From: Candidatus Kapaibacterium sp.
GTDB taxonomy: Bacteria; Bacteroidota; Ignavibacteria; Kapaibacteriales; UBA2268
Assembly (NCBI GenBank): GCA_963665665.1
Contig: OY762428.1
Coordinates: 2,880,001-2,944,000, forward strand
Length of the DNA stretch: 64,000 bases
Reading direction: 5' to 3'
Position numbers and translations under genes: made by a program. Shown piece after piece: positions 10,924-62,247 of this stretch (position 1 is the first letter of the stretch; every line of letters begins with the position of its first letter). The notes under the pieces are model-generated. The model saw only the letters and a list, made by a program, of their open reading frames with translations. It was not told where the DNA came from and made no database searches.

Positions 10924-11097
10924 CGTAAACTGAATTGAAACAATCAAAACTGTAACATTAAAAATTACGTGGATTCCGGATGTCTGATTTTAATAATGAG
11001 AATTTAAACAGTATATCTATAAAAAAAGTCAGGTATTTGTATACCTTATTTATTATCTTAGCTTAATAAAGTATTGCTAATATCGGAGGGAGTAAAC

Positions 11098-24238: not shown

Positions 24239-25531
24239 ATGATTATAATAAGAAAGATGAATAAACCTATACAGCTGTGGGAATATGATGAAATAACTGA
24301 TCCAAATTTACTTGAGATTCTTAAAAAAGAAATAAAAAAGAAAGAGTCTCATTATAAGGATTATTTTACTTTATCTTGGGGAAGCACTTTTAAACCCAAT
24401 GGATACTGTGGATCTTTTGCATTCAATGGAGAAACTTATAGCATCTTACCAAAAATTGAAGGAAAAGGAGATGATGACTGGGATGATGTAAGGAACCTCT
24501 CCTATCTTACTTATATGTTTCTAAAAGCCGAGAATATTGATTTAAAAAATGAAGACATTAGCAATGCTATGAATAGGGAAAGGCTTTCACTCTATGATGT
24601 CTTAATAAAAATATTTACGAACAAATTGCTACCAGAACTGCAAAAAGGTATTCATCGTGAATACGTAAGCAAACGTGATAATGTTAATAAGATCAAAGGC
24701 CGTTGGCTAGTTAGAAAGCATATTACAAAGAATTACTTCAATGAGAAAATATATTGTGAATTTGATGAGTTTTCCGAAAATAACCGGTTGAACAAGTTGT
24801 TTCTTTATGCCGCAAAAGTACTTAAACCACAAAGCCAAGAAACCAGGAAAGACTTGAGAAGAATTGAGTTGGTTCTTGACGAAGTTGAATATGAAGTAAT
24901 AGATGTAAAAAAATTCAATTATTCATTTCATCGAATGAATAAACGCTTTGAGAAATCAGCAAACCTTGCGTTATTATTACTTCGTTATTTACTCCCAAAC
25001 TTTTCTGGTGGGAGTAAGAATAGTTTTATATTCCTATTTAAAATGCACGATGTATTCGAAAGATTCATTGCTAATATTCTTAAGGATTTGGAGCCTGAGT
25101 TGGACGACAGAGAAGTATTAATTCAGCCCCCAAAATATGATAAAGATAACGATTTAAATATTAAACCTGATATGGTAATAAAGAAAGATGATCGGGTAGA
25201 ATTAATTATTGATACGAAATATAAGCTTTTTACAGGTAATCCTACACCAGGAGATAAATATCAGATGTATGCTTATGGTATGAGTTATGATTTTCAAAAT
25301 AATAGAAATCGCTCTATTCTTCTTTTGTACCCTGAGAAAGAAGGGAATGAACAAAAAGAAAGAGATTTTCATTTACAAGGAAATGTTGATGAAAGCCATG
25401 TTGATCTTTATGTCGAGAAGATAAATGTTAAGACTGATAGTAAGATTGTAGGTTTTGATCAATATATTAGTGATATAAAAGATAGATTGAAAGAAATTAT
25501 TGAATCACAAATAAATAGGTATAAAAAATGA
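24239..25531 (+). CDS. mcrC: McrC family nuclease subunit (cargo)
   Basis: ILPKI, CEFDEFSENN.LN, FKMHDVFERFI, IKPDMVI..IIDTKYK, D.YQMYAY, LLYP. Confidence 0.88.
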   Translation: MIIIRKMNKPIQLWEYDEITDPNLLEILKKEIKKKESHYKDYFTLSWGSTFKPNGYCGSFAFNGETYSILPKIEGKGDDDWDDVRNLSYLTYMFLKAENIDLKNEDISNAMNRERLSLYDVLIKIFTNKLLPELQKGIHREYVSKRDNVNKIKGRWLVRKHITKNYFNEKIYCEFDEFSENNRLNKLFLYAAKVLKPQSQETRKDLRRIELVLDEVEYEVIDVKKFNYSFHRMNKRFEKSANLALLLLRYLLPNFSGGSKNSFIFLFKMHDVFERFIANILKDLEPELDDREVLIQPPKYDKDNDLNIKPDMVIKKDDRVELIIDTKYKLFTGNPTPGDKYQMYAYGMSYDFQNNRNRSILLLYPEKEGNEQKERDFHLQGNVDESHVDLYVEKINVKTDSKIVGFDQYISDIKDRLKEIIESQINRYKK

Positions 25532-27246
25532 AATTTGAAGAAAAAGTTTTACTGCTTATAAATAGTGGTAATTATAATTATTTGGCTAATAGTGATGAAT
25601 TCTATTTCGAAAAAGCAGTGGAGCAGTTTCGAACATTTATGAAATTTGAAATAGATGATAATGAAATCAATGAATTAATTAATGAATTTAATGAAATAAA
25701 AGGATTCAAAGAATATTTAGATCAACTCGACAATGATTCAATTAAGTATAAACTTTTTAACCTTTTAGGTAAAGTAATTGCTCATATTGATTATCATGCT
25801 GCAAATAAATATGAATTAAACAGTTACAATGACAAGAGGGTTATTGCAAAATCAATGGTGAGACAAACCGACTGGATTAACCATTTACTAAAATATAAAT
25901 TATCAAACAACTTAAATGTTTTTTCAGAATCCACTAAAAATGCAGTTCTTTATTTAATGAACCCAGCTGAGAGAATAACCATTCTATCTGATAATCAAAG
26001 AAAAGCTATTTCAAAATCAATTCTTAAAACAACATATAACTCTGAATCATTTGACCAGGAGATTATCGAGAAAATCGGATTCCCCAAATCAAAAATTATC
26101 AATAATGATAACATTGGCTATATAACTTCAATAATGCTCTATTCTGATTTGAAAAATTATTGGCAACCTGATGAACACAGTAATAATTTACAACTTAATA
26201 ACGACATAAAAAAAGAAAATCTCTATCCAAAAAATATCATTCTATACGGCCCTCCTGGCACTGGTAAAACTTATCTTCATAAATATTTGATAAATCAACT
26301 TGAAAATTCTAAATCTGATTCTGATGTTTTCAAAGTAATTGATTCTCTTAAGAGTGTCCCAAAGGGTGAAAACTCTTTTATTGATGAGCTTGAAGATCGT
26401 TACGATTTTGTAAGTTTTCATCAGTCATATTCATATGAGGACTTTGTTGAAGGTTTTAGACCTGTCGCCCCAAAAAAGGTAAATATTAAAGAAAATGACA
26501 GTGATGAAGGTAATACTTCAAGTTTAAATATAGAATTAAGAAATGGTATTTTCAAAAAAATGGTTGATAAGGCTAAAAATAAAAAAGAGAATTATTATCT
26601 GGTAATTGATGAGATTAACCGCGGTAATATTTCTAAAATCTTTGGCGAATTAATTACCTTAATTGAAGAAGATAAAAGGTTGGGAGCTAAAAATGAATTA
26701 AAAGTGTCATTACCATATTCTTCTGACAAGAACGAAATATTTAAAGATTTTGGAGTACCTAAAAATCTATTTATAATCGGAACTATGAATACAGCCGATA
26801 AATCTATTGCTCAAATAGATGTTGCTTTAAGACGTAGATTTACTTTTGTCAGGATTGATCCCAGGCCGGATTTAATTGAGCCAAATCCTATTTCTAAAGA
26901 GGGATGGAAAAATTTAGATATTCGAGAAGAATATAAGTCAAATAATGATGATAGGAGCTATAAATGGACTACTGATCCAAAAGACCTACAAGAATGGTTT
27001 ATCAACCTCAATATATTTATTGAAAGTAAATTAGGAAAAGACTATCTAATCGGCCATAGTTATTTCATGAAAGTTGACTCTGATCAAGAGTTACAGTTTG
27101 TTCTTAAATACAAAATCATACCTCTCATGGAAGAATATTTCTTTAATGAGGATAAAAATACTATTGAAGATATTGCGAAGTATTGTAGCATAAGATTGAT
27201 AGAGAAAGAATTAACAAATCAAAATGATGATAAGAGTCCTGACTGA
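25528..27246 (+). CDS. mcrB: McrB family AAA+ GTPase with unrecognised N-terminal domain (cargo)
   Basis: YGPPGTGKT, FHQSYSYEDFVEG, IDEINRGN, GTMNTADKS, ALRRRF, GHSYF; ATGA overlap with mcrC. Confidence 0.92.
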   Translation: MKFEEKVLLLINSGNYNYLANSDEFYFEKAVEQFRTFMKFEIDDNEINELINEFNEIKGFKEYLDQLDNDSIKYKLFNLLGKVIAHIDYHAANKYELNSYNDKRVIAKSMVRQTDWINHLLKYKLSNNLNVFSESTKNAVLYLMNPAERITILSDNQRKAISKSILKTTYNSESFDQEIIEKIGFPKSKIINNDNIGYITSIMLYSDLKNYWQPDEHSNNLQLNNDIKKENLYPKNIILYGPPGTGKTYLHKYLINQLENSKSDSDVFKVIDSLKSVPKGENSFIDELEDRYDFVSFHQSYSYEDFVEGFRPVAPKKVNIKENDSDEGNTSSLNIELRNGIFKKMVDKAKNKKENYYLVIDEINRGNISKIFGELITLIEEDKRLGAKNELKVSLPYSSDKNEIFKDFGVPKNLFIIGTMNTADKSIAQIDVALRRRFTFVRIDPRPDLIEPNPISKEGWKNLDIREEYKSNNDDRSYKWTTDPKDLQEWFINLNIFIESKLGKDYLIGHSYFMKVDSDQELQFVLKYKIIPLMEEYFFNEDKNTIEDIAKYCSIRLIEKELTNQNDDKSPD

Positions 27247-36931: not shown

Positions 36932-37002
36932 AGTTTACAGTTGACAATTGATAGTGGACAGTTTTTCTTTAACTATCAACTATCCACTGTAAACTATCAA
37001 CT
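36932..37002. repeat. Inverted heptamer arrays (AGTTGAY.. / ..ACTATCA)
   Basis: AGTTTAC AGTTGAC AATTGAT AGTGGAC AGT ... ACTATCA ACTATCC ACTGTAA ACTATCA ACT. Confidence 0.85.
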
Positions 37003-43131: not shown

Positions 43132-43153
43132 TATTCACTTTTCATTTCTTCAA

Positions 43154-43184
43154 ACTTTCAACTGTCAACTATCAACTGTCAACT
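43154..43184. repeat. Heptamer tandem array (ACTDTCA)
   Basis: ACTTTCA ACTGTCA ACTATCA ACTGTCA ACT. Confidence 0.85.
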
Positions 43185-47645: not shown

Positions 47646-50600
47646 TTACATACAGTTAGGATCTGGCATTTCATCCACATATCCATGAATATCATTTTTA
47701 GAATGAATTTGTATGTAAACGATTGGAATAATAATCCTTCCAGTTTTATCAATAAAGCCGTATTTCCCATCTTTTGCTACTTTTGCCAGTCCTTTATAAA
47801 AATAATCTGCATAGTCATATTCAACAGGTACTAATACTTTGCCGCTTTTATCTATAAAGCCGTATTTCCCATCTTTTGCTACTTTTGCTAGGCCTTCGCT
47901 GAAAGAAGAGACATGATCATATTCAACAGGTACTATTACTTTACCGCTTTTATCTATAAAACCCCACTTATCACCTTTTCTTACTCTTGCAAAACCTTCA
48001 TGGAAAAAAATGCATCCATCATATTCAACAGGTACTATTACTTTTCCGCTTTTATCAATAAAACCGTATTTCCCATCTTTTTCTACTATTGCTAGGCCTT
48101 CGCTGAAAGAAGAGACATAATTATATTCAGGTACTATTACTTTGCCGCTTTTATCTATAAAACCGTATTTCCCATCTTTTTCTACTATTGCTAGGCCTTC
48201 GCTGAAATAAGAGACATAATTATATTCGAAAGGTACTATTACTTTGCCGCTTTTATCTAAAAAGCCGTATTTGCCATCTTTTTCTACTCGTGCAAGACCT
48301 TCGTTAAAAGAATCGACATAATCATATACAAGGGGTATTACTAGTTTACCCCTTTTGTCTATAAACCCATATTTCCCATCTTTAGAAACTTTCGAAAGCC
48401 CATCGCTGAAACCATAGAAAAACTCATTATCATAATCAAGCGACATAATTTCCTTACCGCCTTTATTTATAATAAATCTTTTCCCATCTTTCATAACTTT
48501 AGCGTAGTCATCTTCATAGAAATGAAATTTTTTATCATATATTAATGGAATTACTACTTTACCGTTTTTATCAACCGATCCCCATTTTCCTTTTTTTTGA
48601 ATTTGAATTAAATCACCATCTCTGAAACAAGAGACTTTATTATATTTCAATGGAATGACAAATTTTCCTTTCTTATTAATAAAGCCTAAACTACTTCCGA
48701 CTTCCACTTCTGCAAGACCGTCGCGGAAAAAATCAATCCAATCATATTCGAAAGGTATTACGACTTTACCACTTTTATCAATAAAGCCATATTTCCCATC
48801 TTTTTTTACTCCTGCAAGACCTTCTCTGAACCAATTTGCATCTTCATATTCGAAAGGTATTACGACTTTACCACTTTTATCAATAAAGCCATATTTCCCA
48901 TCTTTTTTTACTCCTGCAAGACCTTCTCTGAACCAATTTGCATCTTCATATTCGAAAGGTATTACGACTTTACCACTTTTATCAATAAAGCCAAATTTTC
49001 CATCTATTCTTACACTTGCAAGACCTTCTCTGAACCAATATGCTTCTTCATATTCAAATGGAATAATTTCCTGACCATTATTTTTAATATCAATATAACC
49101 CCATTTCTCTGATTTTTTTGCTAGAACAATTCCTTCTGAAAGTGAATTGTATTCTATTCTTTCGTATTCAGGTGGAACTATTGTTTTCCCAGTTCTATCA
49201 ATAAGTCCTCTACCTCCATTTGTTTTTCCTACTTCAAAATATTCATTATATGATCCAGTAATTGAACGATATTTAAAATCAACAACTACTTCACCTAAGC
49301 TGTCAATTATTCCATCATACCCTTTTGTATCTGTTACATGTGCCAAACCATTATGATAATTAAAGGCATTAATATATATAAATGGAATTACGACTTCTCC
49401 TTTTTTATTAATATATCCATACTTTCCATCCTTTTTGACATATGCTAATCCTTCAGAGAAATTTCCCACTGAAGATTTATCATATATAGGTTTATATTTA
49501 GATTCATAAATATCATATTTAATAGGAATGACGACTTTTCCAGTAGAATCTATATATCCGGTTTTACCGTATTTTTCAACCCTAACCAGCCCTTCGTTGT
49601 AGTTACCAATAAAATCATAGTCTAATGGAAAAACTACAGCTCCCGAGGTATCTATATATTTCCATACTCCTTCTTCTTTAACTCTTGCAATGCCTTCTTG
49701 AAAATCACTCACTTCTTCATACTTAGTGGCAATTACACCTTTCCCTGTTGTGTCTATAAACCCCCACCCATTCAAATAACCGCCTTTTGCATGTTTTACT
49801 TTAGCAAAACCATTTTTAAAATTATTAATAATTTCATATTCGACAGGTAATACTTCTTCACCTTTGTTATTTATTATCCCATATCGATAACAACGACCTT
49901 GACAACATATACCTTGAACCCTTGCTAATTTTTGATTTAAAAATTCAATGTTAGAGTAATCAAAACTAAATAACTCATCACCGCTTTTATCAATGAAAGT
50001 CTTTTTTCCACCTATTATTACCTGGGCGATCCCATCACTGAAATCTCCAGCTTCGTCATAATCAAAAGGTATTACAACATTGCCACTCTTGTCAATAAAT
50101 CCACACTTTCCATTTTTTCTCACCTTGGCAAGTTCTTCTGAAAAGTTAAAAGGATAGTCATAAGGGATATAAACCCCGAGAGATTCCAAATTAATAACAA
50201 TATTCCCACTTTTATCTATAAAGCCGTATTTCTCATCCTTATTTACTGCTGCAAGACCTTCATGAAAATTCTCAGCCCTGTCATACTCAAACGGAATGAC
50301 TATTTTACCGGTTTTATCTATAAAGCCATATTTATTTCCTTTACGTACTCGTACAAGATTATCTGAAAATTCCCAAACTGCAGCATATTCAGAATAGAAA
50401 ATGATTTTTCCGTTTTTGTCAATAAAGCCCCACTTATCATCTTTTTTTACTTTTGCCATTCCATTTTTGAAATCATGAGCTCTTTCAAATTCATAAGGAA
50501 TTACTTCATTGCCGCTCTTGTCAATAAAGCCATACTTCCCATCTTTTTCTATAGCAGCTAAATCTTCTGAAAAATCATTGCTTTTATAAAATTTGAAAGA

Positions 50601-51050
50601 TATTAACAACTTTCCTTTTTTATCTATGTATCCTGACTCTTTATTATTATAAACTCTTGCGAGTCCACAACTAAAATCTCTTGCCTCAGTGTATTTTATT
50701 GGAATTACTACTTTGCCGCTTCTATCTATAAAGCCGTAATCACGATCTTTTTTCACTAATGCAAGTTCATCGCTGAAAGATCCGGCCTTATCATATTCTA
50801 AGGGAACAACAATTTCTCCATCATTATTAATAAAGCCCCATTTCCCATTACTACTTACTCTCGCAAGCCCTGAATGAAAATCACCCACAAATTCGAATTC
50901 TTCTCTAAAAGTAAGAAAGACATCTCCATCTTTATCAAGAAAATGGAATTGCCCTTTTCCATCATTTGCAATAAAAGCAATATCTTTATTATTATCACAT
51001 GCAGAGATTAGTATTATCATAAAACTTAAAATAATTGAAATTCTGGTCAT
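47646..51050 (-). CDS. WG (KWG Leptospira) repeat lipoprotein (cargo)
   Basis: Lipobox ISAC; about 30 repeats of F.EGLA.V.KDGKYGFIDKSG.VVIP.EY. Confidence 0.9.
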   Translation of the reverse strand: MTRISIILSFMIILISACDNNKDIAFIANDGKGQFHFLDKDGDVFLTFREEFEFVGDFHSGLARVSSNGKWGFINNDGEIVVPLEYDKAGSFSDELALVKKDRDYGFIDRSGKVVIPIKYTEARDFSCGLARVYNNKESGYIDKKGKLLISFKFYKSNDFSEDLAAIEKDGKYGFIDKSGNEVIPYEFERAHDFKNGMAKVKKDDKWGFIDKNGKIIFYSEYAAVWEFSDNLVRVRKGNKYGFIDKTGKIVIPFEYDRAENFHEGLAAVNKDEKYGFIDKSGNIVINLESLGVYIPYDYPFNFSEELAKVRKNGKCGFIDKSGNVVIPFDYDEAGDFSDGIAQVIIGGKKTFIDKSGDELFSFDYSNIEFLNQKLARVQGICCQGRCYRYGIINNKGEEVLPVEYEIINNFKNGFAKVKHAKGGYLNGWGFIDTTGKGVIATKYEEVSDFQEGIARVKEEGVWKYIDTSGAVVFPLDYDFIGNYNEGLVRVEKYGKTGYIDSTGKVVIPIKYDIYESKYKPIYDKSSVGNFSEGLAYVKKDGKYGYINKKGEVVIPFIYINAFNYHNGLAHVTDTKGYDGIIDSLGEVVVDFKYRSITGSYNEYFEVGKTNGGRGLIDRTGKTIVPPEYERIEYNSLSEGIVLAKKSEKWGYIDIKNNGQEIIPFEYEEAYWFREGLASVRIDGKFGFIDKSGKVVIPFEYEDANWFREGLAGVKKDGKYGFIDKSGKVVIPFEYEDANWFREGLAGVKKDGKYGFIDKSGKVVIPFEYDWIDFFRDGLAEVEVGSSLGFINKKGKFVIPLKYNKVSCFRDGDLIQIQKKGKWGSVDKNGKVVIPLIYDKKFHFYEDDYAKVMKDGKRFIINKGGKEIMSLDYDNEFFYGFSDGLSKVSKDGKYGFIDKRGKLVIPLVYDYVDSFNEGLARVEKDGKYGFLDKSGKVIVPFEYNYVSYFSEGLAIVEKDGKYGFIDKSGKVIVPEYNYVSSFSEGLAIVEKDGKYGFIDKSGKVIVPVEYDGCIFFHEGFARVRKGDKWGFIDKSGKVIVPVEYDHVSSFSEGLAKVAKDGKYGFIDKSGKVLVPVEYDYADYFYKGLAKVAKDGKYGFIDKTGRIIIPIVYIQIHSKNDIHGYVDEMPDPNCM
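48742..48993. repeat. Identical 102-bp tandem duplication inside the WG gene (~2.5 copies)
   Basis: TCATATTCGAAAGG recurs at 48742, 48844 and 48946 with identical intervening sequence. Confidence 0.9.
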
Positions 51051-51120: not shown

Positions 51121-51176
51121 CACCCAATCCCCACACTGAGTGCATTTCATAATACCCGGTCTTTGATTTGTTTTGC
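51121..51176 (+). promoter_or_regulatory. Putative phage late promoter, copy 6 (modification/packaging operon)
   Basis: CCCACACTGAGTGCATTTCATAATAC-N12-TTGTTTTGC; divergent from copy 5. Confidence 0.72.
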
Positions 51177-51245
51177 AAAGGATTCAGCTAATTCTGGAAA
51201 ATTGATACAGGTTTATAGCTGATTCAGAATAAAAGCAATACAACA

Positions 51246-51959
51246 ATGGACGGTTTTATGAACAGGTTAACACCAAAACAAATCTATAATGAGCTTAGCG
51301 AAGTCTATGACCGGAGCTATGGCAGCAGGATACATGAGCTTGAGGATGATTATATTTACAGCTTCCTTGCTGAACACGGTTTTACAAAAGGCTGTCTTCT
51401 TGATTTAGGTTCCGGTACAGGTTCGATATTAAATCATGTCGGAATCAGGAAAGAAGATTATACCGGAATTGATGTTTCCGACAAGATGATCGAGATCAGC
51501 AAAAAGAAGTTTCCGGGATACAATTTTGCAATCGCTACTATGACCAACCTTCCTTTCGAAGATGAATCATTTGATAATGTCATTTCACTATTCGGCAGTT
51601 TTACATATGCCTATAAGCCCGGCAAAGCAGTTAAGGAACTGGATAGGGTTTTAAAGCCGAACGGTAAGTTCCTGATCATGGCTTGCGGAAAGAAGTACAA
51701 GTACAGGGAATCCTATATCCTGAATAAATTCGATATTGAAAGCCCGGCAAGGTTCTTTTCCAGAGATGAGCTAAAGGATTTATTCTTTGGATTCAGCAAT
51801 GTAAAGATATTCAGCATGACATGGTTAAGTGAAAAGCTTGCTGAAATACTTCCATACCGTTTAGACAGATTATACCACAACTTTGAAACAAAGTATCTAA
51901 GCCGGTTCATTCCCGAACAGTTTTACTTCCACATAATAATAGGACAGAAAGATGCCTAA
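51246..51959 (+). CDS. Class I SAM-dependent methyltransferase
   Basis: LLDLGSGTG, GIDVS..M, LPFEDESFD, RVLKPNG. Confidence 0.88.
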   Translation: MDGFMNRLTPKQIYNELSEVYDRSYGSRIHELEDDYIYSFLAEHGFTKGCLLDLGSGTGSILNHVGIRKEDYTGIDVSDKMIEISKKKFPGYNFAIATMTNLPFEDESFDNVISLFGSFTYAYKPGKAVKELDRVLKPNGKFLIMACGKKYKYRESYILNKFDIESPARFFSRDELKDLFFGFSNVKIFSMTWLSEKLAEILPYRLDRLYHNFETKYLSRFIPEQFYFHIIIGQKDA

Positions 51960-53097
51960 GCATTATAGAATTGAAAATGTATTTGATGCAGCTCTGGACA
52001 GGATGATTAAGCTGTATGAAGATGGTCACAGGGTAGTAGTATCATTCTCTGGTGGCAAGGATTCCGGTATTTGCGTTGAGCTTGCCATTATTGCCGCTAC
52101 TCTAACAAATAAACTACCTGTTGAAGTGGTTATGAGGGATGAGGAAATAATGTATCCCGGAACATTTGAATATGCAGTAAGGATAGCTAATAGACCGGAA
52201 GTTAAGTTCTACTGGTATTATGCAAATCAGCCTATTGTGAATATCTTCAACAGACAGAATCCTTATTTCTGGGTTTTCGATCCGAAGCTGCCACCTGAAA
52301 AATGGGTACGACAACCTCCTGATTTTGCAGTTAAGATACCCGAGCAAAGCATACAGGGATTAATCGGACAGAATAAATTCCCTCCTGCTGAAGGTAAAAA
52401 ACTTATAGCTGTAATTGGACTCAGAACAGATGAATCCATGCTAAGGAAAATGGGTTTGATGTCCAGTAAAGGATATGTCACCAAAGGTAAAAGCTCTTAT
52501 GGAACATATAACGCAAGACCGATTTATGACTGGTCGGACGGGGATGTGTGGAAGGCTATCAGGGATAATAACTGGGATTACAACAAAGCTTATGATGTTA
52601 TGCACAGGCTGGGTATCAGCAGGAATAAGCTTAGAATAGCGCCTCCTACATTAGCAGCTGCAGCTATAGACGGTATGTCTATGGCAGCCAAAGCATGGCC
52701 TCAATGGTTTGATAAAGTATGTCAGAGATTACCCGGGGTAAGGACAGCAAGTATGTTCGGCAGAAGATCAGTTGAACCGATCAGGAAACTCGGGGAATCA
52801 TGGAAAGACTGTTTCCACAGGACTTGTATAGATGAAGCTCCGGATTGGATAGCAGAAAGATCAAGGAAGTTAGCTACCTATGTTTTGATGAACCATAAAA
52901 GGCATTCCACCGAAGCATTTCCGGAAGTTACAAAATGTCCTAAGTGTCAGATGACATCATCATGGAAGAATCTGGCAAAGATCATGTATATGGGGGAACC
53001 TTTCTCCATGAAAGTGAAAGTTGATGTACTGCCTTATGTGGAACCGGAATATTTCAGGGAAGGGGCCGGAACCTGGGGCGGAAAACCCACCTGGTAG
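51952..53097 (+). CDS. PAPS-reductase-family PP-loop protein (IbrA/YbdN-like)
   Basis: VFDAALDR..VVSFSGGKDS, GLRTDES..R, PIYDW..DVW, YN.AYD.M...G. Confidence 0.85.
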   Translation: MPKHYRIENVFDAALDRMIKLYEDGHRVVVSFSGGKDSGICVELAIIAATLTNKLPVEVVMRDEEIMYPGTFEYAVRIANRPEVKFYWYYANQPIVNIFNRQNPYFWVFDPKLPPEKWVRQPPDFAVKIPEQSIQGLIGQNKFPPAEGKKLIAVIGLRTDESMLRKMGLMSSKGYVTKGKSSYGTYNARPIYDWSDGDVWKAIRDNNWDYNKAYDVMHRLGISRNKLRIAPPTLAAAAIDGMSMAAKAWPQWFDKVCQRLPGVRTASMFGRRSVEPIRKLGESWKDCFHRTCIDEAPDWIAERSRKLATYVLMNHKRHSTEAFPEVTKCPKCQMTSSWKNLAKIMYMGEPFSMKVKVDVLPYVEPEYFREGAGTWGGKPTW

Positions 53098-53182
53098 TTG
53101 ATAGTGGACAGTTGAAAGTGGACAGTGAGAAGAGAATAAAAGAAAAAATTAACTATCAACTATCAATTATCAACTTTCAACT
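53096..53182. repeat. Inverted heptamer arrays
   Basis: AGTTGAT AGTGGAC AGTTGAA AGTGGAC AGT ... ACTATCA ACTATCA ATTATCA ACTTTCA ACT. Confidence 0.85.
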
Positions 53183-53254
53183 GAAATTCGGCGTAAATAC
53201 TTGATAAATATAGGTTTACATACAATAATAAAATAGAGTAACCGTCTTAAATAT

Positions 53255-53542
53255 ATGGAACTTACATCATTTATAGAATTCATTGACAGCCAGAAATGGA
53301 TATTTGCAAAGACTTATGCAAATAAAGCTCCTCATTCTTACTGCTTGAAGAAAAACTGTGAGGATATTGAGCGCTTCAATCAGGCTGTACAGTTTATCCG
53401 GGACAACGGAGTCAAAGAATTCTTCTATCGCAAAGCATTCATATACTTTTATCATGACGGTTACAAGTACTGGACTATGGGAGCGCCCATAGCTCAGACA
53501 ATACTAATTAACCGGACAAATGATTTTAGTAAATATGAGTGA
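53255..53542 (+). CDS. Conserved-looking small phage protein
   Basis: WIFAKTY..APHSY and Y..DGYKYWTMG..ILINR aromatic-rich motifs. Confidence 0.7.
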   Translation: MELTSFIEFIDSQKWIFAKTYANKAPHSYCLKKNCEDIERFNQAVQFIRDNGVKEFFYRKAFIYFYHDGYKYWTMGAPIAQTILINRTNDFSKYE

Positions 53543-53547
53543 TTTGA

Positions 53548-54228
53548 ATGAAGACATTTGATGACGGAAAATGGCTCTACGGTGATTCCTGGGAACGTTT
53601 CCCGATAGAGACTGGTCAAGTATGGCGTGCAGGAAATAACGTCGTCTCGGCAAGGGATTTAACTCATTTGGGCAGTCTGAACTTTCTCGGCAGGGCAAAG
53701 TTCGATATGTCCTATATCGATCCTCCCTGGAATACCGGCAATATCAATTCCTTTTACACAAAAGCAGGTTTATCCGAAAGAAAGCAGTTTAACTCATTTA
53801 TTGAGAAACTGATCATTCTTATCAGGAAGCATTCCCCTTATGTGAACTATCTTGAGATGGGAAAACAGAACCTTGAATATGTAAAGGATCTGATCTACAA
53901 GCATAATGGAATAGTCACTAATGTATGGAAGATAAAATACTATCGTAAGCATGATTGCTACCTGATACGGTATTCCTTTACCTATCCGGATATGCTTGAT
54001 TATAACTTTACCGGAATGGATGACGAATTGACTCCCAAGATGGCAATCTTCATGGAAAAGAATGTTGAGAATGTTCTCGATCTCTGTACAGGACGAGGAC
54101 TAACGGGAAGAACAGCCTTTGCACTGGGTAAAGAGTTTTTCGGAATCGAACTGAATAAGAGAAGATTAGCCAATCTGCTTGATTTCTACAGTAAACAAGG
54201 TTTAACCATTAATAAATTGAGAGGATAA
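53548..54228 (+). CDS. Amino-(N6A/N4C)-DNA-methyltransferase-like protein, permuted motif order
   Basis: YIDPPW (motif IV) precedes VLDLCTGRG..FFGIELN..R (motif I). Confidence 0.75.
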   Translation: MKTFDDGKWLYGDSWERFPIETGQVWRAGNNVVSARDLTHLGSLNFLGRAKFDMSYIDPPWNTGNINSFYTKAGLSERKQFNSFIEKLIILIRKHSPYVNYLEMGKQNLEYVKDLIYKHNGIVTNVWKIKYYRKHDCYLIRYSFTYPDMLDYNFTGMDDELTPKMAIFMEKNVENVLDLCTGRGLTGRTAFALGKEFFGIELNKRRLANLLDFYSKQGLTINKLRG

Positions 54229-54229
54229 T

Positions 54230-55099
54230 ATGAGCACTTACAACACAACACCCGAAGCTACACAGAAAGCGGTTTCCGAAAAGATTATCAAAAAAGGTAA
54301 AAAGGAAATTGACAAAAAGAATGTATCACTAGGGGAACTGAAGATTGAATATGTCGGTGTAGATAGCATCAAACCTAATAACTACAATCCTAACAGACAG
54401 AGCGAGCATGATTTTGAACTGCTTCTAAAATCTATGGAAGAGGATGGATTCACACAGCCTATCATTGTTCAGCAAGACACAAAGATGATAGTGGACGGCG
54501 AGCATAGATGGAGGGCAGCATCTACTTTAGGCTATAAGGAAATCCCTGTGGTTTTCGTTGAAATGACACCGGAACAGATGAGGATTGCCACTCTCAGGCA
54601 TAACAGGGCAAGGGGAAGTGAAGACCTGGAACTGTCCGTTCAGGTTTTACGTGACCTTCAGGAACTTGGCGCAATGGACTGGGCACAGGATTCCCTTATG
54701 CTCTCCGATGATGAGATAAACAGGCTTCTTGAAGATATTCCCGTACCGGAAGCATTAGCCAATGAAGATTATAATCAGTCTTGGGAACCTACAGAACTTT
54801 CTGATGAAGATAGCAATGTAAACTCTACAGAAGCAAGGCCTGTTGACGGTTATACTTACGGTGGTGAAATGGTAACTGCTGCATCTTCCAAAGCTGTAGA
54901 TACCATCAAGGAAAGACAGGCTCTGATTGAACAAGCTAAAAATGAAGAAGAAAAGGAAATGGCAAAACAGCAGACAAAACTTTACAGGGTTTCCCTGATA
55001 TTTGCCAATGAGGAAGCAGAGATCATTGAAGGAGTTCTGGGTAAGGAACCTGCCGTTAAACTGCTTGAACTGTGTAAGAAAGAACTGGGTACTGAATAA
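54230..55099 (+). CDS. ParB/Srx-like N-terminal domain protein (IbrB/YbdM-like)
   Basis: PNNYNPN, S..EDGFTQPI, IVDGEHRW, ATLRHNRARG. Confidence 0.88.
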   Translation: MSTYNTTPEATQKAVSEKIIKKGKKEIDKKNVSLGELKIEYVGVDSIKPNNYNPNRQSEHDFELLLKSMEEDGFTQPIIVQQDTKMIVDGEHRWRAASTLGYKEIPVVFVEMTPEQMRIATLRHNRARGSEDLELSVQVLRDLQELGAMDWAQDSLMLSDDEINRLLEDIPVPEALANEDYNQSWEPTELSDEDSNVNSTEARPVDGYTYGGEMVTAASSKAVDTIKERQALIEQAKNEEEKEMAKQQTKLYRVSLIFANEEAEIIEGVLGKEPAVKLLELCKKELGTE

Positions 55100-55785
55100 T
55101 GACCGAAGCTTGGGAAAGGCTACCGGGCGAAACCAACAAAGCTTTTAATGCTTTCTGCATATATCGTGATCTTCGTCAGAACAGAAGTTTTACCAAAGTC
55201 CAGATTCAGCTTGGCAAAAAGAGCAAGTCATACATTGCTTACTGGTCCAAGAAGTATAACTGGATCGAACGGGTCAAGGCTTTTGATGATGACGAAGACC
55301 GCAAGAACAGGATTAAACAGCAGGAGAGCATTCAGAAGATGAACGAGAGGCAAGCCCAGCAGGCAGAGACATTCCAGAGGATATTGTTTCTGCCTGTTAC
55401 TGCTATTTCCGCAAGGCTCAAAAAAGACAGGGATAATAAAACACCAGCAATCGAGGATTTAAATCAGCTTGATACAATTCAGCTTATTGAGATGATTGGT
55501 CAGATGAGCAGGAATTACGGCAATCTTGTAAATATCGAAAGGATTGCACGTGGAGCGCCAACCGAGATCGGTAAAAGCGAGAATACTATAATAGTTCCAA
55601 ACAACATTGCAAAATACGGGGAGATGGTAGCTAATGACGAAAAAGCTACAGAGAAGCTTACTGAATACCTCTTTTGCCTGGGAGACCCTGAAAACGGCAA
55701 GCCCGGCAACGATGGCGATGCACCTGTCGGACGGGAAGTATCTGATAGCTCCTCACATAAACATACTGAACAAGAAACTTCTTGA
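55099..55785 (+). CDS. Terminase small subunit (putative)
   Basis: WERLPGET.KAF.AF..YRD..RS..WS....W.ER..AFD pattern; directly upstream of and overlapping TerL. Confidence 0.75.
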   Translation: MTEAWERLPGETNKAFNAFCIYRDLRQNRSFTKVQIQLGKKSKSYIAYWSKKYNWIERVKAFDDDEDRKNRIKQQESIQKMNERQAQQAETFQRILFLPVTAISARLKKDRDNKTPAIEDLNQLDTIQLIEMIGQMSRNYGNLVNIERIARGAPTEIGKSENTIIVPNNIAKYGEMVANDEKATEKLTEYLFCLGDPENGKPGNDGDAPVGREVSDSSSHKHTEQETS

Positions 55786-57064
55786 TGTAGCCGGAGGAAG
55801 GACTAAGAGGCTTATTGTTAATATGCCTCCAAGACATGGCAAATCCGAGCTTATTTCAAGATATTTTCCGGCATGGTATCTCGGTACTTATCCGGACAGA
55901 AGGATTATTCTTGTTTCGTATGAAGCAGGCTTTGCAGCATCATGGGGAAGAAAAACAAAGGAACTATTGGAAGAGTATGGAGAGGATCTATTCGGTATTA
56001 AGCTTAACAGGCTGTCAAATTCAGCATACCGATGGGATGTGGCAGACCATGAAGGCGGACTGAATGCTACTGGTGTCGGTGGAGCGATTACTGGAAAGGG
56101 AGCAAATGTTCTAATCATTGATGATCCAGTCAAAAACGATGAACAGGCAAACAGTAAAACATATAGGGATAAAACATATGACTGGTTCAGGGCTACGGCA
56201 TATACAAGGCTGGAACCGGGTGGAGCTATAATTGTTATCATGACAAGATGGAACTTCGACGACCTTGCCGGAAGGTTATTGAATGATCCGGATTCTGATG
56301 ATAAATGGGAAGTGATAGATTTTCCGGCAATTGCTAAGGAAGATGATATCCTCGGCAGAAAAGAGGGTGAAGCCTTGTGGCCGTACAGGTATTCACTAAA
56401 GAAACTGCAATCAATAAAGAAGCAGATAGGTTCTTACTGGTTCAATGCTTTGTATCAGCAACAGCCTATAGCTTCGGAATACCAGATATTCAAAAGCCAG
56501 TGGTGGCAGGAATATTTGGATTTGCCGGATTATTCTATTCTAATCCAGTCCTGGGATACAGCTTTTAAAGAAAAGGAACAGAATGACTTCTCGGTTTGTA
56601 CTACTTGGGCTTTAACTAAGAACGGATATTATCTGGTTGATTACTGGAGAGGAAAAGTACTGTTTCCGGACCTGCAAAGGCAGGTTGTAATGCAATATAA
56701 CAAGTACAAACCTAATGTAGTTCTTATTGAGGATGCTGCAAGTGGACAGAGCCTTATTCAGGTTCTGCAGAGGGAAACAAAGATCCCGATCAAGGCAGTG
56801 AAGGCTATGAAAGATAAAGTTACAAGGGCACATCTGGTAACGCCACTATTTGAAGCAGGAAAGATATTCGTTCCAAAGGATGCTGTCTTTCTTGCAGATA
56901 TTATCAATGAATGCTCTGAATTCCCGTATGGCAATCATGATGATATAGTGGATTCAATCACTCAGGCTCTTGATTTCCTGAGAAAGAGGGTAGGTAGTTC
57001 AAAACCAGTAAATCTTATGAAAAATGTTCAGCAAAAAAGAGAGAATTTCTTCACCACTTACTAA
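55634..57064 (+). CDS. Terminase large subunit
   Basis: MPPRHGKS Walker A, ITGKGA..LIIDDP.K, YQQ.P, SWDTA, HDDIVDS; the start may be 55712. Confidence 0.95.
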   Translation: MTKKLQRSLLNTSFAWETLKTASPATMAMHLSDGKYLIAPHINILNKKLLDVAGGRTKRLIVNMPPRHGKSELISRYFPAWYLGTYPDRRIILVSYEAGFAASWGRKTKELLEEYGEDLFGIKLNRLSNSAYRWDVADHEGGLNATGVGGAITGKGANVLIIDDPVKNDEQANSKTYRDKTYDWFRATAYTRLEPGGAIIVIMTRWNFDDLAGRLLNDPDSDDKWEVIDFPAIAKEDDILGRKEGEALWPYRYSLKKLQSIKKQIGSYWFNALYQQQPIASEYQIFKSQWWQEYLDLPDYSILIQSWDTAFKEKEQNDFSVCTTWALTKNGYYLVDYWRGKVLFPDLQRQVVMQYNKYKPNVVLIEDAASGQSLIQVLQRETKIPIKAVKAMKDKVTRAHLVTPLFEAGKIFVPKDAVFLADIINECSEFPYGNHDDIVDSITQALDFLRKRVGSSKPVNLMKNVQQKRENFFTTY

Positions 57065-57070
57065 ATAGCT

Positions 57071-58516
57071 ATGGGAATAATCAGTAAACTAAAAAATGTA
57101 TTTGCAGAGAAAAATGATGTAAAAGAATCACGGCCGTATCCTCTCGGTGTCATTGCCAGCAGGCAGGCCTTTTCTTATTCGCTTCTGAATGAGATCCTTC
57201 CGAATCCGGATTTGATCCTGAAAAAGAATGATGAGACTTTAGAGACTTACAGGAATTTTCTTTATGATGCCCATGTAGCAAGCTGTGTGCAGTCCAGAAA
57301 GTCAGGCATTCTCAGTATGGAATGGGAAATAAACCGGGGAGCAAAGAAAAGCCAGGAAGCTGAGTTTATTGAGAATATTTTCAATGATCTGAATATCCGA
57401 CAGATAATCAATGAGATACTTGATGCCCCTTTGTACGGTTTCAAGCCACTTGAAATATACTGGGGTGAAACAAATGGAATGATTATTCCCAAAGAGGTGA
57501 AAGGTAAACCTCCCTGGTGGTTCTTCTATGATACTAATAATATGCTCAGGTTTAAGGATAAGAACAAACAGTTCGGAGTGCTGATACCAAATAAAAAGTT
57601 TCTGGTTGTTCAGAGTAATGCAAGTTATGATAATCCTTACGGGGATGCCGTCCTTGCCAAATGTTATTATCCGGTCATCTTTAAGAAAGGCGGTATGAAG
57701 CTCTGGTCAATCTTTACCCAGAAGTATGGAATGCCTTTTCTTCATGGTAAAATTGGATTAGGTAAAGGACAGGAAGAAGCTTACGAACTGTTTAATGTTC
57801 TTGAAAAGCTACAGCAGGACGGCATCGCCATTACCGAGGAAGAGGTTGATATTGAAATTCTTGAATCTTCAAAAACAAGTTCTTCTGATATTTACAGGAA
57901 CCTGCTTCACTTCTGCAATGCAGAGATTTCCAAAGCTATATTATCTCAAACACTGACAACGGAACAGGGCGATACTGGCTCTTATGCAATGTCGCAGACT
58001 CATCTCCAGGTCAGGAAAGATGTAGTGGACTCAGACAAACAGCTTGTAGAAATTTGGATGAATAATCTCATCGAGTGGATCATAGAATACAACTTCAATT
58101 CAATATCAGAGATGCCTAAGTTTGTTTTGTTTGAGGAAGAAGATGTAGATATGACGCTTGCCCAGCGTGACCAGACCCTAGCATCCACAAATCAGATCAC
58201 ATTTACCAAGGAATATTTCAAAAGGAATTATGGCTTTAAAGATGATGAAATTGAAGTTGGTAAGAAAGAAATAAAAACTGAATTTTCGGAAAATCCGGAT
58301 TATGGAATTACAGATTTAAACCAATTCGACGAACTTACTCAGGAAATTATCAAACCAGTCCTGAAAATGATTGAAGAGAAGAAGTCCTTTGAAGAAATTC
58401 AGCATGGTATTGTTGAGCTGTTCCCTGATCTCGACACCAAACAGCTTGAAGATTATCTGGCAAAAGCTATCCTGGTTGCTTCCGGCAGCGGAATAATCGA
58501 AGCAGGATGCATCTGA
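57071..58516 (+). CDS. Portal protein (Mu gp29/DUF935-like)
   Basis: DAHV.S..Q.RK, NPYG..L..CY, KYGMP, EISKAIL.QTLTT, GSYA...H. Confidence 0.9.
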   Translation: MGIISKLKNVFAEKNDVKESRPYPLGVIASRQAFSYSLLNEILPNPDLILKKNDETLETYRNFLYDAHVASCVQSRKSGILSMEWEINRGAKKSQEAEFIENIFNDLNIRQIINEILDAPLYGFKPLEIYWGETNGMIIPKEVKGKPPWWFFYDTNNMLRFKDKNKQFGVLIPNKKFLVVQSNASYDNPYGDAVLAKCYYPVIFKKGGMKLWSIFTQKYGMPFLHGKIGLGKGQEEAYELFNVLEKLQQDGIAITEEEVDIEILESSKTSSSDIYRNLLHFCNAEISKAILSQTLTTEQGDTGSYAMSQTHLQVRKDVVDSDKQLVEIWMNNLIEWIIEYNFNSISEMPKFVLFEEEDVDMTLAQRDQTLASTNQITFTKEYFKRNYGFKDDEIEVGKKEIKTEFSENPDYGITDLNQFDELTQEIIKPVLKMIEEKKSFEEIQHGIVELFPDLDTKQLEDYLAKAILVASGSGIIEAGCI

Positions 58517-59247
58517 TGAACTATTTCGGGGAATATTATAAATCCTATGGAAAAGTACCTTCATACACATTTGAAAGCCCTTTTGATGTATCTTTTAAGC
58601 TCCCTCCGGAAAAAGCCCTGGCGTGGCTTAAAGAAAGAGGCAAAAATCTAAAGCTAAGTATTGACTGGGACGAACTTGACGCCGAAGCACATGATAAAGC
58701 CTTTACAGTAGCAAAAGTGTTATCAGCAGATATTCTACAGCTTATATATGATCATGTTGAAAAAGCTAAGAAAGAAGGACAGACTTTAAAGCAGTTTCGG
58801 GATGAACTTTTACCAAAGCTCCAGGAGTCCGGATGGTCTGGTGCAACACCATCACGTCTGAAAGTTATTTATGATACTAATTTACAGATGTCGTATTCAA
58901 AAGGTAAATTCCGTCAGCATAAGCTAATTGCAAATATGTATCCCTACTGGAAATACAAACAGATCCAGAGAGCTACAAAACGGCACGATCACAGCCTTCT
59001 CGACGGTAAAGTATTCAAACATGATGACCCGATTTGGGATTTGATATATCCACCTTCCGGATTCGGCTGTAAATGTTCTGTTGTTCCTATTAAAGATGGC
59101 AGTAAAGCAGAGAAAGGTTCGGATTATTTGCAGAAGGTCAAGGCCAGCGGAGAATTTCAGTTAACTCCACTCAAAGCATGGAAGCCAGATACAGAAGTGT
59201 ATGTTACCGGGATTAGAGAGAAGTTAATAGGAATGCTGAAAATATGA
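58516..59247 (+). CDS. Head morphogenesis protein (Mu gpF/gp30-like)
   Basis: AFTVAK, RLKVIYDTN, PYW.Y, HDDP.W..YPP.GFGCKCSV. Confidence 0.9.
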   Translation: MNYFGEYYKSYGKVPSYTFESPFDVSFKLPPEKALAWLKERGKNLKLSIDWDELDAEAHDKAFTVAKVLSADILQLIYDHVEKAKKEGQTLKQFRDELLPKLQESGWSGATPSRLKVIYDTNLQMSYSKGKFRQHKLIANMYPYWKYKQIQRATKRHDHSLLDGKVFKHDDPIWDLIYPPSGFGCKCSVVPIKDGSKAEKGSDYLQKVKASGEFQLTPLKAWKPDTEVYVTGIREKLIGMLKI

Positions 59248-59825
59248 TCAAACAGGAAATAATAGACAACCTGAATCATACCTTCCGGGAAATCAGAAAG
59301 CAGTACGATGATCTTTCGCCTGTATTGGAAATGGTTTCAGCTTTAATAGATCGGGCAATTACAGCGAACTTCGATTCTCGCGGCCGCTGGGATGGAGATG
59401 AATCCAATATCGGATTATTCTCCGGAGGCTCACAGAAATGGAAAGCCCTTGCCGGCTCAACTAAATCTGACTATGAAAAATACGGCTACGAATTGCAGCC
59501 AACCTTGAACAGGACAAAAGGGCTTATGTCCTCAATAGAAGTGCGCCCACAAGGTAAATCCTCAGTAATAATCTCAGCAAATGCTCCTTACGCTGCTATC
59601 CACAACTATGGTGGAATTGTAAAACCTTCGATAACAATCACTCCCCGAATGCGGAACTTTTTCTGGTACAAATTCTATGAAACAGGCTTGGTTTCCTGGA
59701 AGGCTATGGCTCTGACCAAAAAGAAAAAGCTGAAACCTGTTATCGAGATTCCAGCCAGACCTTTTATTACTCTTACTGAAGAGGATTTGGAAGAGATAAT
59801 TTCAATTCTAAAAATTAATCTCTGA
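59244..59825 (+). CDS. Virion morphogenesis protein (Mu gpG-like)
   Basis: NF...G..W..L, YAAIHNYGG, IPARPF. Confidence 0.88.
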   Translation: MIKQEIIDNLNHTFREIRKQYDDLSPVLEMVSALIDRAITANFDSRGRWDGDESNIGLFSGGSQKWKALAGSTKSDYEKYGYELQPTLNRTKGLMSSIEVRPQGKSSVIISANAPYAAIHNYGGIVKPSITITPRMRNFFWYKFYETGLVSWKAMALTKKKKLKPVIEIPARPFITLTEEDLEEIISILKINL

Positions 59826-59853: not shown

Positions 59854-61884
59854 TCAAGACGATAATCCTAATTTATCAAAGAAAGCTTGGTTTCTTTCTT
59901 TTGCTGCTTTTACCAATTTATCAAAGGAAATAACTTCAATATAGGCATTATAATTATCGTTATAGCCGAAATACCCCATCTTATCATAAGAAATCTTCAA
60001 TCCAAATAGTTTACACCTTTCTTTCACAGATGAAGTTAAGTCACTCAAAACATAACAAAATCCTGGAACATTTTGAGATTCAGGAATCGGCCTTCCCGAA
60101 TGAGTATTTACTTTACCTTCACGTACTCGTTCTAAATATTTTAATGCTTGCTCGATTGGGTCTTTTTCCTCTCCAGATTTTGCATCATTTCTCATTGGTC
60201 TTTTTATTTCAATAACTATTATTGATGCTAATGGTAGTTCTTCACCATCATTAACAAGTAAGGGATTGTCAAATACATTTAATCCCATAATATCAGGTTC
60301 TTTTGTTTTTGTAGAATCTGTAATTGGCATAGACTTTAATGTTTTATCTGAAGCTAAATAATTGTGAAATGCAAATCTTTCATCAACTAACCATAGATTA
60401 CTGTCATCGGATTTAATTTCTTGACTTTCTTTACCCATTGGCATAATTAATTGGTGTATAAAGTCCTCACGGATATACTTGCCATCTGATTGTTTCTGAA
60501 TTGCCTTATTCAGAAGTTCGATAATTACTTTTCTATGTGAAACATAGCTGGCTAAATCAGATTTTTTTATATCTGATGCTTTTAAAAGATAATCATTTAA
60601 TTTTGCTTCATACTCATCTATCTCAAGAATTGTTTCTTGACTTAAGAGAGTGTGACCATCATCAAGAAGTTTACTTTCAATATCAAACAAATATTTATGC
60701 AATGTAAGTTCAAGATCTTTGTCATTAATATTAGGGTCGACTGCAAGATCATCTTCTGAAATTGAGTTTAAAATTGATTTGTACTTTGGTGCCCGGTTTG
60801 CAACAAAATTATCTACTCTTTCTCTTCCTTTCTTTTTGTTTTCTATCAAATATCCACTCAAATACTCTGAAATATGCTCAATCATTTTAGTTCTAATATC
60901 TTTAAAAGATAAGTCACTATCTTCAAAAAGCCCATCTGACTCGTCTTGGATGTTAAATCCAATTCGTTCGGGTCTTACTGATTCGTCAAGATATTCAGAA
61001 GTTATGAATCCAAGATAAGTAAATGTCTTCTCGTCTTCTCCTATTAATGCACCATATAAACCCGGTATTTTTCCATTGATATTCTCGTCTTTAACAACTC
61101 TATTTCCTGCACAATATGCAATTGAATGTTGTCTTGATGAAGTAGTAAGCAGTTTAACATGAATTAGGTTAAATTCTTTTTCTTTGTGTTCGATTTTTTC
61201 AACGAAAGATGATTCAATCATATACTCCTCAAAAATTGTATCAAGATTTTGAAGATCCTCTCCATCATTGACAGTTATTTTGGGAATACCTCCACCTCTG
61301 ATGAAATACCAGAGGCAATGCTCTAATAGTTCTTTTGCAATGGTTTCCGCAGTTTTTTTTGAATATTTTAAATATGGTTTCTTGAATCCAATTAAAGAAA
61401 GTTCAGTTTTTAAGTCTAGTGGTTCAGATATACTTAACAGATTTTCATTGCAAACATCATTTTCAACTTCAAAATCAAATGTTCTTTTTTGGTGATTCCC
61501 TTCAGAATCTTTAAAAATACTTATAACTGATACTTTTTCAAATGCTTTTAACCATAAAAGTCTGCCAATACCACGGCATCCTTTTTCGGCTTTATAATCA
61601 GAATCAAATGTTTGAAATGAAATATAGTTATTATTATCAAATCCAATTCCATTATCGGTGATTTTAAACCCAGTAATTTCAGGCTTTTGACCAGTTTCTA
61701 AATCTAAAGCAATTTGATTTGACCTAATAATGTCGACTCTAATATAAGACTCCTCAAAATCAATACCTCTTTCTTCAATTGAATGAATTGAATTGACGAC
61801 AGCTTCAAAAAGTGGCAAAAGTGCATGTGTTTTAGGCAATGTCGTATTTTTTAATCTGCCTTTCAAAAAAGTATTCATACTCAT
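59854..61884 (-). CDS. GHKL (MORC-like) ATPase fused to a C-terminal PD-(D/E)XK nuclease (cargo, candidate defence gene)
   Basis: EAVVNSIH, ITDNGIGF, GCRGIGR (GHKL boxes); EPDI..VIEIKRP..EQ...Y..EVISFDKL. Confidence 0.8.
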   Translation of the reverse strand: MSMNTFLKGRLKNTTLPKTHALLPLFEAVVNSIHSIEERGIDFEESYIRVDIIRSNQIALDLETGQKPEITGFKITDNGIGFDNNNYISFQTFDSDYKAEKGCRGIGRLLWLKAFEKVSVISIFKDSEGNHQKRTFDFEVENDVCNENLLSISEPLDLKTELSLIGFKKPYLKYSKKTAETIAKELLEHCLWYFIRGGGIPKITVNDGEDLQNLDTIFEEYMIESSFVEKIEHKEKEFNLIHVKLLTTSSRQHSIAYCAGNRVVKDENINGKIPGLYGALIGEDEKTFTYLGFITSEYLDESVRPERIGFNIQDESDGLFEDSDLSFKDIRTKMIEHISEYLSGYLIENKKKGRERVDNFVANRAPKYKSILNSISEDDLAVDPNINDKDLELTLHKYLFDIESKLLDDGHTLLSQETILEIDEYEAKLNDYLLKASDIKKSDLASYVSHRKVIIELLNKAIQKQSDGKYIREDFIHQLIMPMGKESQEIKSDDSNLWLVDERFAFHNYLASDKTLKSMPITDSTKTKEPDIMGLNVFDNPLLVNDGEELPLASIIVIEIKRPMRNDAKSGEEKDPIEQALKYLERVREGKVNTHSGRPIPESQNVPGFCYVLSDLTSSVKERCKLFGLKISYDKMGYFGYNDNYNAYIEVISFDKLVKAAKERNQAFFDKLGLSS

Positions 61885-61974: not shown

Positions 61975-62247
61975 TTACCCCATTTCCCTCATAATCTTAC
62001 CGACAACCCTTTCATTCATACCAAGCTCCCGGGCAATTTTCTTTATCGGAATTTCTTTAGCATTGGCTTTGATATAGCGTTCAACGAGAGAACGGAGAGA
62101 TGTAAACATCGGGATGGATACAGTTATTCCGCCCAATTCTCTGATAAGGGTTCTGGCAGTTTCAATACCGCAGGTTTCGGATACGATCTGGAAATGCTCC
62201 GGTAAGTCCTGCTCTTCAAGCAAGTTGATTATTTTGTCGTTTCTCAT
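61975..62247 (-). CDS. Mor/C-family transcription activator
   Basis: DLPE....E..G.E.A..L...LGG..V.IP dimerisation motif plus C-terminal HTH (KKIARELGMNERVV). Confidence 0.8.
   Translation of the reverse strand: MRNDKIINLLEEQDLPEHFQIVSETCGIETARTLIRELGGITVSIPMFTSLRSLVERYIKANAKEIPIKKIARELGMNERVVGKIMREMG

Follow-up and report, generated by a model that had tools for sequence, protein, structure and literature searches.

The results presented here suggest that five genes, A to E, located directly upstream of the terminase genes of a prophage of Candidatus Kapaibacterium sp. (assembly GCA_963665665.1, contig OY762428.1), constitute an IbrA/IbrB-type phage module that modifies DNA, is transcribed with the packaging genes and marks replicated phage DNA, a reading to which we assign a probability of roughly 0.55. 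The window that was analyzed is a stretch of 64,000 nucleotides (positions 2,880,001 to 2,944,000 of the contig), and the coordinates given below are those of the window unless indicated otherwise. The cassette belongs to a phage gene set that is very common and as yet unstudied, and we argue that the widely annotated phage "PAPS (phosphoadenosine phosphosulfate) reductase" sulfur genes belong to a conserved multi-enzyme cassette directed at DNA, for which this work provides a defined core (A, B and E, together with the C domain) and a predicted interface between B and E. Should such a mark be detected, a new DNA modification pathway would be added to those known, the wide occurrence of this gene set in phages would be explained, and its annotation would be corrected. 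The seven genes listed in an initial annotation of this DNA, A to E and the two terminase genes, were all present at their coordinates with the family signals that had been reported for them. The region is arranged as follows:

51121 to 51245, plus strand: late-promoter region, with the exact promoter core at 51130 to 51145 and a TTTG-rich stretch TTGTTTTGCAAAGG between this core and gene A
51246 to 51959, plus strand: gene A, class-I S-adenosylmethionine-dependent methyltransferase (Methyltransf_11/25 type), 237 amino acids
51952 to 53097, plus strand: gene B, IbrA-like PP-loop protein, 381 amino acids
53098 to 53190, plus strand: long imperfect hairpin in the gap between B and C; the element is a repeat specific to the prophages (family D9)
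53255 to 53542, plus strand: gene C, alpha/beta domain of an unnamed family, 95 amino acids
53548 to 54228, plus strand: gene D, short protein resembling beta-class N6/N4 DNA methyltransferases, accessory, 226 amino acids
54230 to 55099, plus strand: gene E, IbrB-like ParB/Srx protein, 289 amino acids
55099 to 55785, plus strand: TerS, terminase small subunit (phrog_6299, 1e-22)
55634 to 57064, plus strand: TerL, terminase large subunit (Terminase_6N/6C; phrog_38, 1e-122)

B and E form an IbrA/IbrB-type pair, as had been proposed in the initial annotation, because each is homologous to IbrA and IbrB, respectively. B was 25% identical to phage IbrA over residues 13-345 (BLASTP, E 3e-25) and matched phrog_2302 at 8e-60, and E was 34% identical to IbrB over residues 39-188 (E 2e-23), with the IbrB-like phrog_2159 as its best family (2.4e-34). 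The IbrA/IbrB pair of E. coli prophage islands, which has the paralogues YbdN and YbdM in strain K-12, is encoded in the same order as here, with the PP-loop enzyme followed by the ParB-like protein, and B can be aligned with phage IbrA over nearly its full length, while the alignment of E with IbrB takes in the C-terminal linker. However, a near-obligate class-I methyltransferase and the C domain are additions of the subfamily to which the cassette belongs, the HxxH...CxxC site of B is absent from IbrA, E ends in an extra C-terminal domain of 100 residues, and the cassette heads a terminase operon. In the parts of the published record available to us, YbdN is described only as a PAPS reductase/DUF3440 protein and YbdM only as a protein with a ParB-like nuclease domain.

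The residues expected of a PP-loop enzyme are strictly conserved in B, which carries the motifs SGGKDS and CPKC: S31, S33, G35, K36, D37 and S38 of the PP-loop were invariant in 35 of 35 aligned B sequences, as were H315, H318, C329 and C332 of the helical C-domain, and C292 was retained in 97% of these members. The structure of B was modeled with a predicted local distance difference test (pLDDT) score of 90, and its N-domain resembles CysH, FMN adenylyltransferase and TtuA. A sequence search of the PDB with B returned nothing significant. DUF3440 was not detected in B by Pfam, a relative of 31% identity reaching 23.3 bits against a cut-off of 25. The B family is very conserved: 820 of 2275 candidate proteins scored E ≤ 1e-5, the best 120 relatives are at least 55% identical, and B is 55-60% identical across metagenome-assembled genomes (MAGs) labelled with several phyla. 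In E, ParB_N was matched at 4.4e-14 (52.7 bits against a cut-off of 26.3), the motifs YNPNRQ, DGFTQP, VDGEHRWRA and RHNRARG were found, D89, G90, E91, H92 and R93 were invariant in 33 of 33 sequences, and the GxxR box is intact.

Modeling of the two proteins together supports binding of B to E. The predicted complex received a score of 0.68, compared with 0.00 for the best of three controls. In the benchmark, 116 of 157 solved complexes and 2 of 215 mismatched pairs attained this score, counts that apply only roughly to a model built, like this one, on custom alignments. The model runs agreed in at least 63% of the contacts, with a partner pLDDT of at least 63. The predicted interface would bring the linker of E (residues 162-188) into contact with residues 2-14 and 192-205 of B, and both sides are conserved: residues 192-205 of B correspond to the invariant YDWxDGDVW stretch, and the linker is also kept in IbrB. 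Sequence searches turned up no similar complex among solved structures. The accessible portions of earlier reports describe ParB-like partners of DNA modifiers, namely DndB with DndC and DpdB with DpdA.

The cassette is widely conserved in phages. The order A-B-C-D-E-TerS-TerL is retained in sixteen loci in which B is 77-84% identical, apart from the absence of D from L016 and L017 and of C from L021, and among these close relatives the highest conservation was seen for B and E (about 82-88%) and TerL (78-83%) and the lowest for A (50-60%). The wider set consisted of 80 viral loci fetched with the B alignment and the window, 81 in total, in which profiles were scored on all open reading frames (ORFs), with denominators given by the DNA covered (at least 900 nucleotides upstream, 70 loci; at least 2.5 kb downstream, 74 loci; at least 5.5 kb downstream, 60 loci). 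The co-occurrence with terminases, which the initial annotation had put forward for examination, was evident in this set: 63 of 70 loci had A immediately upstream of B, E was within 3.5 kb downstream of B in 73 of 74, and TerL was downstream of the cassette in 54 of 60. C and D were found in 36 and 27 of 74 loci, respectively. A, B and E are the core, and C and D are accessory, which does not agree with the earlier view of the five genes as one unit. The module of other phages also holds GNAT, 2OG-Fe(II) oxygenase and further methyltransferase genes, additions that would fit a modification pathway. The pair is also carried by cultured phages, among them Flavobacterium columnare phages and cluster B mycobacteriophages, and a tblastn search returned 225 phage records; in the mycobacteriophage Gadjet, the order is ParB, PAPS reductase, ParB and then TerL, and no TerS is annotated.

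In one large marine-looking group the module comes after primase/helicase and replication-initiator genes, and therefore the position of the cassette is better described as a junction of the replication and packaging modules than as always a late operon. Packaging coupling, which had also been proposed, is a possibility raised by the adjacency of the cassette to TerS and TerL; in other phages the module follows primase/helicase genes. In a large group of relatives (L044-L074, for example L074 8411-9948), the cassette is separated from TerL by gamma-glutamyl cyclotransferase and amidoligase genes on the opposite strand.

The relationship between A and C became apparent from gene fusions. A matched Methyltransf_11 at 2.6e-20, whereas C matched no known family and is a member of an unnamed one with 3444 representative clusters. 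Among the best 150 C-family representatives, 46 were fusions of C to an A-type methyltransferase (C~A), in which the methyltransferase matched the A-family profile at about 1e-38 to 1e-43; a domain scan of 28 of the 150 showed fusions of C to other domains as well (GNAT, PDDEXK_4, HTH_17 and DUF433). When 80 loci were fetched with an alignment of the C~A fusion, B not being used as a query, both B and E were present in 75 of them; the fused gene was found in 59, and B and E adjoin it in 55 of these, the remaining four being cut contigs. Since the loci of the C~A fusions hold B and E, A and C of the window are the split form of one protein of the IbrA/IbrB module, and C corresponds, as a free-standing protein, to the N-terminal domain of the fusions. 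The 95-residue protein is, then, a detached helper domain of A-type methyltransferases and no orphan. No C~A fusion was present within the loci fetched via B (0 of 71), in which longer A proteins have no C domain. In one large group of viral contigs (L143-L179, for example L159 5166-11325), the cassette is expanded and consists of a C~A fusion, a second A, D, five ParB-like genes and B.

D scored 26.6 bits against N6_N4_Mtase (Pfam cut-off 26.7). Its DPPW motif (residues 58-61) precedes VLDLCTGRG (DxCTGRG) near residue 176, so that motif IV comes before motif I, as in beta-class N6/N4 DNA methyltransferases, and both motifs are kept in 22 homologues; a sequence search of the PDB with D gave nothing significant. 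A 206-residue gene between C and B in locus L022 was considered as a relative of D and proved to be unrelated to it.

The strongest argument that the cassette acts on DNA comes from nuclease fusions and restriction-gene neighbours of C in bacteria, which suggest that C recognizes DNA, possibly in a modified form. When the genome collection was queried with a C~nuclease fusion, a query that returns only relatives of that protein, C was present and A, B, D and E were absent within the DNA covered in 22 of 22 loci, all from genomes labelled Prevotella or Bacteroidales. C is fused to a PD-(D/E)XK nuclease (PDDEXK_4) in L180, with further fusions to a PD-(D/E)XK nuclease in P0209 and P0300, and it forms the C-terminus of an 851-residue GmrSD_N protein in L199. 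The neighbours of these fusions, as seen among 26 proteins scanned from 4 of the 22 Prevotella-type loci, include GmrSD type IV restriction genes, WYL-WCX regulators, an integrase, a YhcG nuclease and a D12 adenine methyltransferase. C links phage modification genes to bacterial type IV restriction islands.

From the gene content, conservation, co-occurrence and fusions observed, we infer DNA as the target, and a possible order of steps and chemistry can be proposed. E, as a ParB/Srx-fold nucleoside triphosphate-binding DNA protein, would hold B via the conserved linker and carry it to DNA, where B, as a PP-loop ATP pyrophosphatase, would activate a DNA group by adenylation and leave it open to substitution. 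With C as a guide, A would methylate this site or its product; C would be a small domain recognizing the DNA site or an intermediate, and D may add ordinary N6-adenine or N4-cytosine methylation. A more far-reaching proposal, which we put forward tentatively, is that adenylation followed by methylation writes an undescribed DNA mark other than N6-methyladenine, N4-methylcytosine, 5-methylcytosine or phosphorothioate, and that C is a dedicated recognition module with which phages aim the methyltransferase and with which bacteria carrying C~PD-(D/E)XK and C~GmrSD_N proteins detect and cut the marked DNA. If true, this would amount to an unrecognized arms race between modification and type IV restriction across thousands of phage lineages.

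Several observations weigh against the view of the cassette as a DNA modification module. A is a methyltransferase of the small-molecule type without an amino-methyltransferase motif, and the cassette contains no gene for a sulfur or amine donor. C has no recognizable DNA-binding fold, even though its structure was modeled with confidence (pLDDT 93.5): comparison of the model with the PDB gave a best E of 0.23 with Foldseek, and VIA-align against 48,161 chains gave a best Z of 4.1. Pfam searches with 30 members of the C family returned nothing below E 0.07, a PDB sequence-profile search nothing below E 0.3 and a PDB sequence search with the Prevotella C-protein nothing significant; the BFVD contained a single unnamed family member, and the protein atlas gave no usable match. 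The co-occurrence counts are not independent events, because many loci are close relatives. Neither A nor C accompanies the IbrA/IbrB pair of the E. coli phage or the mycobacteriophage set, and therefore the methyl step is not universal in the wider family. The hairpin 3' of B may uncouple A-B from C-D-E. Finally, the literature searched yielded no biochemical study of IbrA/IbrB-type pairs and no measured chemistry for any member.

Comparison with known DNA modification systems narrows the chemistry. In the sections of the literature that could be consulted, the DNA modification system Dnd (DndB-DndC, along with SspD and BrxP) resembles the cassette in that a PP-loop enzyme with the PAPS-reductase fold has a ParB-superfamily protein as its partner, and B matched the models of BrxP (1.2e-10) and DndC (7e-07) weakly. 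In contrast to Dnd/Ssp, a methyltransferase is present instead of a cysteine desulfurase, a DndD/SspC ATPase and DndE/SspB, none of which was detected in the operon by family searches. B was rejected as a DndC, with 21.2 bits against a cut-off of 290.4 for TIGR03183. Because B fails this cut-off and the cassette holds no sulfur-donor gene, phosphorothioation is disfavoured. DNA as the likely target, as suggested originally, gained comparative support from the C fusions and their restriction-gene neighbours. Phage ParB-methyltransferase fusions (phrog_498) and DpdA-DpdB also join a ParB-like domain to a DNA base modifier; E matched the ParB part of phrog_498 at 9.5e-28, and D followed by E resembles a split form of such fusions, although the predicted partner of E is B, not D.

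Alternatively, the genes could be an anti-defence or nucleotide-pool set acting on a small molecule (a nucleotide, sulfonucleotide or signalling molecule), on RNA or on protein. PP-loop and methyltransferase pairs are typical of tRNA modification, A is of the small-molecule type, and the ParB/Srx proteins include the kinases SerK and SbnI, all of which would be in keeping with such a target. We nevertheless regard it as unlikely, because C is tied to nuclease-type proteins with PD-(D/E)XK and GmrSD_N domains, D is a DNA-type methyltransferase and E keeps the motifs of ParB DNA proteins. Also in its favour is a statement that evasion of a host Dnd system is promoted by a phage PAPS reductase, for which Piel et al. 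2022 is cited in the available text of one 2026 paper; the same paper suggests DNA modification as a possible role of phage PAPS reductases. Against it, no match to the DndC model was found in the host genome (a single contig of 5.46 Mb, 99.5% complete).

It is rather more doubtful that the B-E complex is an accessory of packaging, for example in the recognition of a pac-like site, or of late transcription, and handles DNA with no covalent modification. The location of the cassette just upstream of TerS/TerL in most loci, the conservation of B and E at the level of TerL, the database description of IbrA/IbrB as a "co-activator of prophage gene expression" and the ParB-like gene directly before TerL in Gadjet, with no annotated TerS, could all be understood in this way. 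Yet this prophage, like most relatives, encodes a separate TerS, the invariant PP-loop and the steady linkage to methyltransferases, GNAT and oxygenase point to catalysis, and the module moves between unrelated terminase families. The co-occurring terminases fall into six sequence clusters, with PHROGs 38, 979, 9 and 2 as the best matches, and the module is therefore not adapted to one terminase.

That B is a viral CysH, an auxiliary metabolic gene (AMG) product boosting sulfate assimilation, is highly improbable despite its Pfam PAPS_reduct match (8.6e-10) and despite the sulfur AMG label that phage PAPS reductases mostly carry in the published annotations, as far as their accessible text goes, since the match covers profile positions 101-161 of 175 only, a regular-expression search found neither the ECG[LIV]H catalytic motif nor the CC...CxxC cluster, the NCBIfam CysH models scored 16-17 bits against cut-offs of 154-165, and B has an obligate ParB partner. 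The PF01507 matches in the host genome are the two prophage copies of B only, and thus there is no CysD/CysH pathway of the PF01507 family for B to feed in the host. Sulfate assimilation is, like phosphorothioation, disfavoured.

The DNA modification reading also includes transcription of the cassette with the packaging genes, for which two further features are relevant:

57071 to 59825, plus strand: remainder of the operon, with genes for a Mu-type portal, a MuF-like head protein and a virion morphogenesis protein (family searches)
61975 to 62247, minus strand: 90-residue protein with a weak match to the Mor/C family of late activators, a candidate reader of the promoter motif (phrog_836, 1.5e-9)

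The 16-nucleotide promoter core CCCACAYTNARTRCMT has four exact matches in the window, at 37019, 43663 and 47421 (all three on the minus strand) and at 51130 (plus strand), all at the heads of operons and oriented with transcription; 1.25 matches with up to two mismatches would be expected by chance. Genome-wide, there are five exact matches, every one inside this prophage or a related one described below. The sequence upstream of A had been called the sixth copy of a repeated promoter, and its core at 51130 is indeed exact, but two of the supposed copies, at 24193 and 31681, are only weaker relatives. The Mor-family match of the 90-residue protein was weak (Pfam Mor, 22.1 bits against a cut-off of 24.9). 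The repeated motif and this activator match suggest late expression, which is the likeness to Mu mom. The enzymes appear unrelated to Mom, and this phage, unlike Mu, has a primase/helicase. No Mom family was among the Pfam and PHROGs matches of the operon proteins, a search in which no dedicated Mom model was run. Mom is an enzyme of the acyltransferase fold. The analogy with mom drawn in the initial annotation is regulatory only.

The genes of the operon are closely packed, as had been noted, at all junctions but that between B and C. A and B overlap by 8 nucleotides, C and D are separated by 5 and D and E by 1, E and TerS have 1 nucleotide in common, and TerS and TerL overlap by 152. In contrast, B and C are separated by 157 nucleotides, and the hairpin in this gap (-22.8 kcal/mol, z -2.69) splits the operon after B. 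The spacing between B and C is only about 54 nucleotides in relatives from other genomes. The hairpin element is rich in GTTGATAGT/ACTATCAAC and has 12 genomic matches, mostly within the two prophages; copies are also found at 36969-37002 and 43151-43184, and one copy lies directly 3' of a late promoter. The element may be an attenuator, a terminator or a processing site.

The prophage extends in the window from about 18950 to past 64000, and a sister prophage of about 89% identity is located at 4.38-4.43 Mb of the genome, where 4407370-4416040 corresponds to the operon (51150-59797). The ratios of nonsynonymous to synonymous substitution rates between the two copies (sister copy at 4.41 Mb) were lowest for B (0.010), followed by E (0.030), D (0.050) and both A and C (0.070), compared with 0.038 for the portal gene, TerS and TerL being left out of the scoring on account of gapped alignments. 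B differs between the copies by 5 nonsynonymous and 95 synonymous changes. All five cassette genes are under purifying selection. The nearest relatives of the cassette come from MAGs labelled Ignavibacteria, Kapabacteria and Bacteroidetes.

The two prophages differ at several sites. At 24239-27246, a low-GC (0.30) insert carries a McrC-like gene (PF10117, 1.7e-52) and an AAA_5 McrB-like gene, in place of which the sister has other, shorter DNA; this McrBC-like insert is a modification-dependent restriction system, and the phage in which it lies probably modifies its own DNA. Between two divergent late promoters, 47646-51050 encodes a protein of 1134 residues with 28 WG-containing repeats; the sister lacks this gene, and its two promoters are about 26 nucleotides apart. 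A minus-strand gene of 676 residues (59854-61884), with a faint HATPase_c_3 match only, lies between the head genes and the Mor-like activator, and about 14.8 kb takes its place in the sister. Outside the prophage, a stretch of about 290 nucleotides at 10703-11005 has 11 more genomic copies at 69-81% identity, and the 12-nucleotide unit GGTTCGGATAAG occurs in five tandem copies at 1467-1549, within an ORF at 375-1724.

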